64,000 nt of DNA from Escherichia coli (GTDB lineage: Bacteria > Pseudomonadota > Gammaproteobacteria > Enterobacterales > Enterobacteriaceae), in assembly GCF_016026235.1 (NCBI RefSeq), contig NZ_CP065613.1; one strand, given 5' to 3'. Positions within the stretch are counted from its first letter, which is position 1. Each line of letters starts with the position of its first letter. Below are positions 29,949 to 31,154 of the stretch, piece after piece. The notes beneath the pieces are model-generated. The model searched no databases and had not been told where the DNA came from. It saw only the letters and a program-made list of their open reading frames with translations. Made by a program: the position numbers and the translations under genes.

Positions 29949-30920
29949 ATGACCGAATCAACAACCTCCTCCCCGCATGATGCGGTATTTAAAACCTTTA
30001 TGTTCACACCCGAAACCGCACGGGATTTTCTCGAAATACATTTACCAGAACCACTGCGCAAGCTTTGTAACCTGCAAACCTTACGCCTGGAACCCACCAG
30101 TTTTATTGAAAAAAGTTTACGCGCTTACTACTCGGATGTTTTGTGGTCCGTGGAAACCAGCGACGGTGACGGTTATATCTACTGCGTGATTGAACATCAA
30201 AGCTCTGCAGAAAAGAATATGGCTTTTCGGCTAATGCGCTATGCCACTGCCGCCATGCAGCGTCACCTGGACAAAGGCTATGACAGAGTCCCGCTGGTGG
30301 TGCCGTTGCTGTTTTATCATGGCGAAACCTCGCCTTACCCGTACTCACTCAACTGGCTGGATGAGTTTGACGATCCGCAACTTGCCCGGCAGTTGTACAC
30401 CGAAGCTTTTCCGTTGGTGGATATCACCATCGTACCTGACGATGAGATCATGCAACATCGGCGTATAGCTCTGCTGGAACTGATTCAAAAGCATATTCGC
30501 GACCGCGATTTAATCGGTATGGTCGACAGGATCACCACGCTTTTGGTTAGAGGCTTCACTAATGACAGCCAGCTACAAACACTGTTTAATTATCTGCTGC
30601 AATGCGGCGATACCTCCCGTTTCACCCGTTTTATTCAGGAGATTGCCGAACGTTCACCACTACAAAAGGAGAGATTAATGACTATTGCTGAACGGCTACG
30701 GCAGGAAGGGCATCAAATTGGCTGGCAGGAAGGTAAATTAGAAGGTTTGCAGCAAGGTAAATTGGAGGGTCTGCAGAAAGGTAAATTAGAAGGTTTGCAG
30801 GAAGGCATGCATGAGCAAGCCATTAAAATTGCCTTGCGCATGCTGGAGCAGGGCTTTGAACGTGAGATTGTGCTGGCGGCAACCCAACTCACTGATGCTG
30901 ATATTCCGAACTGTCATTAA
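29949..30920 (+). CDS. rpnB: Rpn-family (YhgA-like, PD-(D/E)XK) recombination-promoting nuclease RpnB/YfaD
   Basis: 323 aa [36 protein letters not shown]...; C-terminal region with three GKLEGLQ heptads. Confidence 0.9.
30678..30920 (+). CDS. candidate internal in-frame ORF within rpnB (RpnS-like small protein)
   Basis: Internal ATG at 30678 preceded by aaggaga (30666-30672); it is the first copy of the duplicated unit that also forms ypaA. Would encode 80 aa [25 protein letters not shown]... Confidence 0.35.
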
Positions 30921-30932
30921 AAGGAGAGATTG

Positions 30933-31154
30933 ATGACTATTGCTGAACGGCTACGGCAGGAAGGACATCAAATTGGCTGGCAAGAAGGTAAATTAGTAGG
31001 TTTGCAGCAAGGTAAATTAGAAGGTTTGCAGGAAGGCATGCATGAACAAGCTATTAAAATTGCCTTGCGCATGCTGGAACAGGGCATTGATCGTGACCAG
31101 GTGCTCGCGGCCACCCAGCTAAGCGAAGCCGATCTGGCAGCGAATAACCACTAA
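30933..31154 (+). CDS. ypaA: YpaA, stand-alone duplicate of the RpnB C-terminal domain
   Basis: 73 aa [73 protein letters not shown]; Shine-Dalgarno aaggaga at 30921-30927. Confidence 0.8.
   Translation: MTIAERLRQEGHQIGWQEGKLVGLQQGKLEGLQEGMHEQAIKIALRMLEQGIDRDQVLAATQLSEADLAANNH

Follow-up and report, generated by a model that had tools for sequence, protein, structure and literature searches.

The locus examined here lies within a 64,000-nucleotide stretch of an Escherichia coli chromosome (assembly GCF_016026235.1, contig NZ_CP065613.1; hereafter the window) and consists of a nuclease-like gene whose 3' end is followed immediately by a near copy of itself in the form of a small separate gene. 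Two questions arise, namely to which system these genes belong, and what role the free-standing copy plays beside its larger neighbor. The first can be answered with high confidence: this is very probably the rpnE-ypaA locus of the E. coli chromosome, which belongs to the Rpn (YhgA-like) family of gene-within-gene toxin-antitoxin systems and has an extra free-standing copy of the small-protein gene. The arrangement is real and already known, having appeared in print in 2019 and 2023. The coding features are the following.

29949..30920, + strand: rpnE (yfaD), full-length ORF of 323 aa (RpnE_L), PD-(D/E)XK recombination-promoting nuclease (ORF, RefSeq annotation, NF007418 at 721.7 bits)
30678..30920, + strand: rpnE_S, in-frame internal ORF from M244, 80 aa, intragenic antitoxin-type small protein (translation; Ribo-RET/Onc112 peaks and SPA tag reported for K-12 in the literature)
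30933..31154, + strand: ypaA (= rpnE_Ss), free-standing 73-aa copy of the RpnS domain (ORF, PF27070, and 7TH0 by sequence and fold)

Of 5,426 complete E. coli genomes searched with megablast, 5,420 contain the region, always on the chromosome and never on a plasmid. The RefSeq records give the gene order glpC-rpnE-ypaA-yfaU, in which yfaU is convergent to ypaA and the ypaA ORF begins 12 nt past the rpnE stop codon TAA (30918-30920). The larger gene had been called rpnB in a reading of the same DNA made without database searches (the sequence-only reading), a name that has to be given up on three grounds. RefSeq annotates rpnE at the matched site in thousands of genomes. The best equivalog is NCBIfam NF007418 (RpnE/YfaD group, PRK09956), with 721.7 bits for the 323-aa protein against a cut-off of 583; the same protein scores below the cut-off of the NCBIfam RpnA model. 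Finally, the glpC/yfaU neighborhood is that of yfaD, and the published name mapping equates RpnE with YfaD and RpnB with YfcI (Kingston et al. 2017, PMC5350276). The allele in the window is a minority type, matched at at least 99% identity by 32 of the 5,420 records. In most RefSeq records the NCBI pipeline PGAP labels ypaA a fragment or pseudogene.

Most of the length of RpnE is taken up by the nuclease domain.

29970..30575, + strand: nuclease domain PF04754 (Transposase_31, YhgA-like), residues 8-209 (Pfam E=8.8e-88)

The protein scores 178.7 bits against the Rpn family model TIGR01784, for which the cut-off is 52.1, and its numbering is collinear with that of the RpnA model (1-256 to 1-256, no offset). 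Residues D11, D63, E82, Q84, R94 and PDDE163-166 are all present in RpnE; mutations at the same positions inactivated or altered RpnA, a PD-(D/E)XK nuclease with demonstrated endonuclease activity (Kingston et al. 2017, PMC5350276). By sequence, the locus combines the characters of the Rpn family, which include PF04754, the catalytic residues, an internal start made of a Shine-Dalgarno (SD) element and ATG, the HTH_Rpn_C fold and variable 4-aa repeats. The PADLOC 2023 set contained no Rpn model. When overexpressed, RpnE of K-12 produced no toxicity, no SOS induction and no stimulation of recombination, and it is the only paralogue to behave in this way; the internal start was present in the constructs of these assays, as was rpnE-ypaA in the host (Kingston et al. 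2017, PMC5350276). RpnE is therefore at most a putative toxin, and the inactivity of the K-12 protein could reflect either a weak enzyme or one that is unusually well inhibited.

The sequence-only reading had described 30666-30920 and 30921-31154 as tandem direct repeats, and a repeat search, a MAFFT alignment and a protein alignment all agree with it. Two families from the repeat search link the end of rpnE to ypaA, one of 118 nt at 93% identity with a spacing of 255 and another of 179 nt at 81% identity with a spacing of 231. Column identity in the MAFFT alignment of the two copies is 88%; at the protein level RpnE_S and YpaA are identical at 62 of 81 aligned positions, or 62 of 72 ungapped ones (E=4e-39). 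Identity is unevenly distributed along the copies. It reaches 93-95% in the 5' two-thirds and is much lower in the last ~70 nt. By segment, 63/66 nt agree from the SD through GWQE and 63/72 in the next 72 nt after the repeats, whereas the last ~50 nt are much more diverged; the C-terminal 20 residues have diverged as well. Both copies open with AAAAGGAGAGATT[A/G]ATG, that is, AAGGAG, a 6-nt spacer and an ATG at 30678 or 30933.

30666..30671, + strand: internal Shine-Dalgarno AAGGAG, inside codons K240-E241, separated by 6 nt from the internal ATG (sequence)
30921..30926, + strand: Shine-Dalgarno AAGGAG of ypaA, directly after the rpnE stop TAA (30918-30920) (sequence)

The ATG at 30678 is codon 244 of the 29949-30920 ORF and in frame with it, so that initiation there gives 80 aa, and the downstream ORF gives 73 aa, again as first described. 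The AAAAGGAGAGATT[A/G]ATG cassette is kept in 162 of 166 copies from other loci, and a duplication with paired SD-ATG cassettes cannot be chance. In RpnA, changes equivalent to K240/E241/M244 abolished RpnA_S (Zhong et al. 2023, PMC10400941).

The two copies also contain repeat arrays of different length.

30725..30805, + strand: array of 24-bp repeats within rpnE/rpnE_S, 3.4 copies, which make three octads or six 4-aa units (Tandem Repeats Finder, translation)
30985..31036, + strand: array of 24-bp repeats within ypaA, 2.2 copies, which make two octads or four 4-aa units (Tandem Repeats Finder)

The count of three units versus two given in the sequence-only reading holds, but its unit, a 21-bp GKLEGLQ heptad, does not. 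Tandem Repeats Finder and translation together define a unit of 24 bp, the 8-aa octad [E/Q/K]GKLEGLQ, which is composed of two 4-aa G-x-x-x units. What separates the copies is one such 24-bp unit, together with an unrelated indel of 3 bp close to the C-terminus (DI-PNCH versus DLAANNH). Subtracting the second from the first leaves 21 bp, and it was this coincidence that gave rise to the heptad. A comparison of repeat counts across strains had been proposed as a check; the counts do vary, in steps of 4 aa rather than of a heptad, every length difference in 94 other loci being a multiple of 4 aa.

Annotation and structure comparison assign the small protein to a known fold. Precomputed annotations of identical proteins place PF27070 (HTH_Rpn_C) on YpaA and on the C-terminus of RpnE. 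In sequence, YpaA also matches E. coli RpnA-S as crystallized in PDB entry 7TH0 (E=2e-4), over residues 1-13 and 33-71; as this match is split into two pieces, the repeat run is an insertion in the first helix. The single-sequence AlphaFold model of YpaA is of moderate quality (pLDDT 71.5), with helices 29-49, 54-61 and 65-71 confident and the repeat region not, and the top PDB match of this model in Foldseek is again 7TH0 (probability 0.99, TM 0.74 on target, E=0.18). As a PDB sequence query, full-length RpnE missed 7TH0, whereas the small protein alone retrieved it. A Pfam profile search with YpaA, using a profile set without the RpnS domain family, returned weak Yae1_N and HTH matches only, with no match to DUF4351 (PF14261).

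Much of this system has been characterized in K-12. Retapamulin-arrested initiating ribosomes were found at in-frame internal starts of all five rpn genes, and the authors pointed out that the protein made from within rpnE and the product of the separate ypaA gene are almost identical (Meydan et al. 2019, 10.1101/520783). The sequence-only reading had referred to a report that Rpn nucleases are held back by small proteins from internal starts, and this report exists (Zhong et al., PNAS 2023, PMC10400941). In that work the RpnS proteins made from internal starts were found to directly block the toxic RpnL nucleases, the structure of RpnA_S was solved, and neutralization of RpnL by RpnS was shown for RpnA, RpnB and RpnC. 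The rpnE-ypaA pair was treated explicitly, ypaA being named rpnE_Ss; in MG1655 it was examined by ribosome profiling with Onc112 and retapamulin, and SPA-tagged RpnE_S and YpaA were detected on immunoblots. The K-12 alleles from which this translation evidence comes have 0 and 1 repeat units, versus 6 and 4 in the window. The same authors reported that some strains have a second copy behind rpnE and rpnC, which is lost by deletion or fusion, and that the 4-aa repeats vary between strains in all RpnS and RpnSs proteins. They further found that RpnC is neutralized only by RpnS of the same repeat number, a difference of one 4-aa unit abolishing neutralization (their Fig. 4D), and they showed antiphage activity only for the plasmid paralogue RpnP2. 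Since initiation-site mapping and strain repeat counts are both present in that paper, these checks, which the sequence-only reading had put forward, are already published for K-12. A literature search returned no later study that deals more closely with RpnE or YpaA.

Comparison with the known systems places the window allele more precisely. The K-12 MG1655 locus has the same glpC-rpnE-ypaA-yfaU synteny, an SD-ATG at codon 244 and a downstream small gene, but differs in the length of its products: RpnE has 299 aa (0 units; RpnE_S 56 aa) and YpaA 61 aa (1 unit), compared with 323 aa (6 units; RpnE_S 80 aa) and 73 aa (4 units) in the window. RpnA_L/RpnA_S (7TH0) shares PF04754, the same catalytic positions, an M244 start behind K240/E241 and the three-helix domain, and the first 11 residues of RpnA_S and of the small protein in the window are identical. 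In contrast, helix 1 of K-12 RpnA_S lacks the repeat insertion, no second copy follows rpnA, and RpnA, unlike K-12 RpnE, causes toxicity when overexpressed (Kingston et al. 2017, PMC5350276). In some E. coli strains a separate copy of the small-protein region of rpnC, rpnC_Ss, likewise lies behind that gene; Zhong et al. (2023, PMC10400941) consider it to derive independently from its upstream gene. This is, however, a different paralogue at a different locus, and the test of repeat-number specificity was done on RpnC and not on RpnE/YpaA. The same authors drew an analogy with the EcoR124I/EcoR124II specificity subunits (TAEL repeats), in which the number of 4-aa repeats in a helix alters the specificity of a defense-related protein; the repeat count there sets the length of a DNA-recognition spacer and not toxin-antitoxin pairing, and the proteins are unrelated.

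Expression of the small genes was considered from the sequence signals of the locus, which include a single terminator-like element.

31162..31188, no strand assigned: G+C-rich hairpin, terminator-like, in the gap that separates ypaA from convergent yfaU; no second one in the locus (scan)

The scan of the locus revealed no terminator-like site between rpnE and ypaA, which argues that ypaA is probably co-transcribed with rpnE_S. No sigma-70 consensus promoter was detected upstream of 30678, relaxed thresholds included, and an internal transcript and transcription start are known only from K-12 dRNA-seq (Zhong et al. 2023, PMC10400941). RNA folding around the two starts did not differ from that of shuffled sequence (z = -1.06 and -0.70).

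Taken with the published work, these features outline a mechanism in which RpnE_L would act as a PD-(D/E)XK DNA endonuclease with a C-terminal helical domain. The strong internal SD and the ATG at codon 244 would yield this domain alone (RpnE_S, 80 aa), and the same SD-ATG cassette, opening ypaA behind the rpnE stop, would yield RpnE_Ss (73 aa). By analogy with RpnA and RpnC, from which we infer the behavior of RpnE, the small protein would use its long first helix to form a dimer with the corresponding domain of RpnL, thereby blocking the nuclease. The number of units in the hypervariable 4-aa G-x-x-x run of helix 1 would set which partners are possible, and the array would grow and shrink by slippage or unequal recombination; both steps follow the same analogy.

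The role of YpaA in such a scheme is the second question, and the distribution of the two copies among strains bears on it directly. The two-copy form, recognized by the rpnE-type 3' end together with the junction, was counted in 3,133 of the 5,426 complete E. coli genomes (~58%). In a systematic sample of the megablast matches, most of the remaining genomes (~42%) have one copy, in records that are ~300 bp shorter and annotated as rpnE followed by yfaU. Six single-copy E. coli alleles fetched from RefSeq (L011, L014, L016, L017, L021 and the IS2-disrupted L019) all end in SEADLAANNH, which is the YpaA-type end. In E. albertii, too, rpnE is present once; its C-terminus is YpaA-like, and the same hairpin and yfaU lie behind it. 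From this one outgroup we infer that ypaA may hold the ancestral 3' end of the gene and that the rpnE-type end would be derived. A scan of a genome collection for the internal-start pattern returned only E. albertii and one E. coli representative, an outgroup hint from too few genomes for a phylogeny. A metagenome scan for the exact junction pattern returned only two loci, in one of which (L005) unrelated non-E. coli DNA follows the junction; this locus may be a chimeric assembly, and the scan contributed nothing to the population figures.

Other alleles point to exchange between the copies. One representative E. coli genome (L063) has a chimeric 3' end, consistent with recombination between them. 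Strain-specific repeat variants often occur in both copies of one genome, as KIEGW does in L003, and such shared variants suggest gene conversion in the 5' part of the copies. Overall, the two-copy arrangement appears to be unstable, a lone copy with a YpaA-type end being what about 42% of E. coli genomes contain.

These observations favor, tentatively, the explanation that we place first: YpaA is a still-expressed by-product of recombination, the ancestral 3' end of rpnE having been displaced by a new C-terminal cassette that was duplicated or inserted upstream. YpaA would then have no action on the resident RpnE_L and would matter mainly in genetic terms: the tandem homology would allow deletions, fusions and gene conversion, and through them new combinations of repeat number and C-terminus. 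The single copy with a YpaA-type end in the E. albertii outgroup and in the six fetched E. coli alleles, the chimeric end of L063, identity that is high at the 5' and low at the 3' side of the copies, and the shared variants all fit such an origin, as do the fragment or pseudogene calls by PGAP in most RefSeq records. Against it stand the detectable synthesis of the YpaA protein (Zhong et al. 2023, PMC10400941) and the state of the gene in other strains. The YpaA ORF and its SD are intact in every locus read, most of these having been retrieved by searches for intact YpaA and the sample being biased accordingly. They are intact even where rpnE is broken, whether by a nonsense mutation (L030), by a split or shortened frame (L036, L056, L057, L058 and L061) or by IS2 (L019). 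This resembles selective retention of YpaA, of which it is a weak hint, because most loci came from the searches for intact YpaA sequences.

Repeat numbers bear on this explanation and on its main competitor. They were compared in 94 two-copy loci, drawn from 21 RefSeq genomes and from exact-protein look-ups of seven YpaA and three RpnE alleles, with units counted as 4-aa units above the shortest form. RpnE_S has 0, 1, 2, 3, 5, 6 or 8 units and YpaA 0, 1, 2, 4 or 6. Written as units in RpnE / units in YpaA, the 13 combinations are 0/1 (18 loci, the K-12 type), 6/4 (16 loci, the window type), 5/0 (11 loci), 5/2 (10 loci), 1/4 (9 loci), 5/1 (8 loci), 1/2 (8 loci), 8/4 (5 loci), 8/6 (3 loci), 0/4 (3 loci), 2/4 (1 locus), 3/1 (1 locus) and 6/2 (1 locus). 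The two numbers are thus equal in none of the 94 loci. None of the 13 combinations matches, but the permutation probability of zero matches is 0.33 and the loci are phylogenetically non-independent; with no match in 33% of permutations, avoidance of equal numbers is not claimed. One identical RpnE protein is paired with a YpaA of either 73 or 65 aa, and the ypaA array therefore changes quickly and independently. Nothing keeps the two copies in register, and unmatched repeat numbers of this kind are a further point in favor of the recombination by-product.

It is doubtful, in comparison, that YpaA provides a second dose of cognate antitoxin, which would inhibit the resident RpnE_L as RpnE_S does and tune the ratio of toxin to inhibitor. 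Several observations agree with this proposal: YpaA is synthesized in K-12 (Zhong et al. 2023, PMC10400941), it opens with the same SD-ATG cassette 12 nt behind rpnE across a terminator-free gap, and it has 62 of 72 ungapped aligned residues in common with RpnE_S. The lack of toxicity of K-12 RpnE in a strain that carries ypaA would also fit very effective inhibition (Kingston et al. 2017, PMC5350276). However, a difference of one unit abolishes neutralization of RpnC (Zhong et al. 2023, PMC10400941), and the repeat numbers of YpaA and RpnE differ in all 94 two-copy loci, being 4 and 6 here; in addition, the C-terminal 20 residues have diverged and ~42% of genomes lack the second copy. Because RpnE has six 4-aa units and YpaA four, YpaA in the window strain is probably not a simple extra dose of cognate inhibitor. 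If the RpnC rule holds for RpnE, YpaA would be non-cognate for the neighboring RpnE_L in any sampled strain, and the dosage idea would fail. The dosage-tuned toxin and inhibitor module proposed in the sequence-only reading is accordingly unsupported, given the inactivity of K-12 RpnE, the need of RpnC for equal repeat numbers, and numbers that differ in the window as well as in 94 of 94 loci.

Less probable again is that YpaA is a specificity-shifted partner kept deliberately out of register, acting as a silent-cassette-like donor that switches RpnE pairing, as an inhibitor of non-self RpnE variants or as a decoy for a phage factor, a reading that the published literature does not address. It is prompted by the unequal numbers in every two-copy locus examined and by the change of the ypaA number beside an identical RpnE, but chance alone leaves about one third of permutations free of matches. 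We thus rank the recombination by-product or substrate first, the cognate antitoxin second and the specificity-shifted partner third. It is highly improbable that rpnE encodes an ISNCY-family transposase and that ypaA is an incomplete copy which transposition left behind, as the RefSeq product name 'ISNCY family transposase' and a 13-nt imperfect inverted repeat bracketing rpnE-ypaA (29886-29898 / 31184-31196) might suggest. The locus occupies the same chromosomal site in 5,420 of 5,426 genomes with no plasmid copies, and a 12/13 inverted match in 2.3 kb is by our own estimate expected about once by chance. Neither terminal inverted repeats nor target duplications are reported for rpn genes (Zhong et al. 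2023, PMC10400941), and the domain belongs to the PD-(D/E)XK nucleases, with endonuclease activity demonstrated in RpnA (Kingston et al. 2017, PMC5350276). Considered as an insertion sequence, the region offers only this chance-level 13-nt inverted repeat and one fixed chromosomal site.

This work is a rediscovery of a published system and gives no new lead. It serves as a useful positive control, in that a gene-within-gene antitoxin can be detected from raw sequence: the sequence-only reading rightly sensed a toxin/inhibitor module, although it misnamed the gene and mis-measured the repeat unit. What is added here is the ~58% frequency of the two-copy form, the repeat numbers that never match in the 94 two-copy loci, though without statistical significance, and the single copy with a YpaA-type C-terminus in E. 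albertii. What interest remains is narrow and lies in the role of YpaA/RpnE_Ss, whose repeat number is unlike that of its neighbor in all loci examined, in a family where RpnC needs matching numbers and K-12 RpnE is non-toxic. That role would tell whether tandem RpnS copies are functional regulators, recombination substrates that switch specificity, or leftovers.

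In most RefSeq E. coli genomes (compared loci L001-L003 and L006-L009, among others), the segment at 30921-31154 of the window, which holds ypaA, the free-standing copy of the RpnS domain downstream of the nuclease gene rpnE, is labelled by PGAP as a pseudogene fragment, worded as a 'hypothetical protein, incomplete, missing N-terminus' and annotated with a start directly after the rpnE stop codon. Protein accessions for ypaA (WP_000150333.1 and WP_000150342.1) are present in only some RefSeq records. This pseudogene call conflicts with published evidence for ypaA translation (Zhong et al. 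2023, PMC10400941).

The nuclease part of rpnE is broken in several strains where the small ORF behind it is still intact along with its ribosome-binding site, in a sample biased towards an intact small ORF, as most of these loci were found via searches for intact YpaA.

Loci with disrupted rpnE
L019: IS2 inside rpnE
L030: nonsense codon in rpnE, 8 codons past the internal ATG
L036, L056, L057, L058 and L061: rpnE shortened or split into several calls

At the rpnE-ypaA junction (30913-30940), the rpnE stop region can pair with the ypaA start over 8 bp (GUCAUUAA / UUGAUGAC), leaving the Shine-Dalgarno sequence in the loop. Such stop/start pairing would fit translational coupling; the fold is no better than that of shuffled sequence (z = -0.70). 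An identical junction follows an E. coli-type rpnE 3' end on the metagenome contig SKEH01015850.1 (L005, region 441-614 and downstream), where it leads into a different, diverged RpnS-like ORF of 57 aa (MTIAERLQEVGRRKGKREGQHAEALRIAQRMLDDGIARETVVKITGLTADEIAALAH). Megablast of the DNA beyond this ORF against 5,426 E. coli genomes gave no match. Either the contig is an assembly chimera with its join in the conserved SD-ATG-MTIAERL sequence, or the rpnE junction here holds a genuine heterologous cassette.

In E. albertii NBRC 107761 (L062, 1156-1365), the C-terminus of the single-copy rpnE product is like YpaA and unlike E. coli RpnE, and the one copy in SCPM-O-B-8794, a GTDB representative labelled E. 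coli (L063, 553-786, minus strand), has a chimeric RpnE/YpaA C-terminus (FELEIVLATTQLTEADLAANNH).

The whole rpnE-ypaA unit is bracketed by a 13-nt imperfect inverted repeat (29886-29898 / 31184-31196; GATGTCAAAGGCC / GGCCTTTGATATC), the right arm of which overlaps the terminator hairpin; by our estimate, a repeat of this kind is no more than chance would give in a 2.3-kb region. Downstream of the rpn locus, a sizeable group of strains (L017, L019, L037, L056, L061, L078 and L080) has the neighbouring yfaU (rhmA) truncated or absent and lacks the rhamnonate genes beyond it, with yfaY or a MoCF_biosynth gene next, which makes this flank a deletion-prone spot in its own right. Several of these strains carry the single-copy form.

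The repeat-encoded protein segments (30725-30805 and 30985-31036) have glycine at each fourth residue (G-x-x-x-G), and the repeat gives weak matches to models of FliH (best E 1.6e-9, under the FliH cut-offs) and to Pfam Yae1_N. FliH and Yae1_N are both known for glycine-repeat helices, a feature that would fit a helix-helix packing interface with a length tunable by 4-residue steps.
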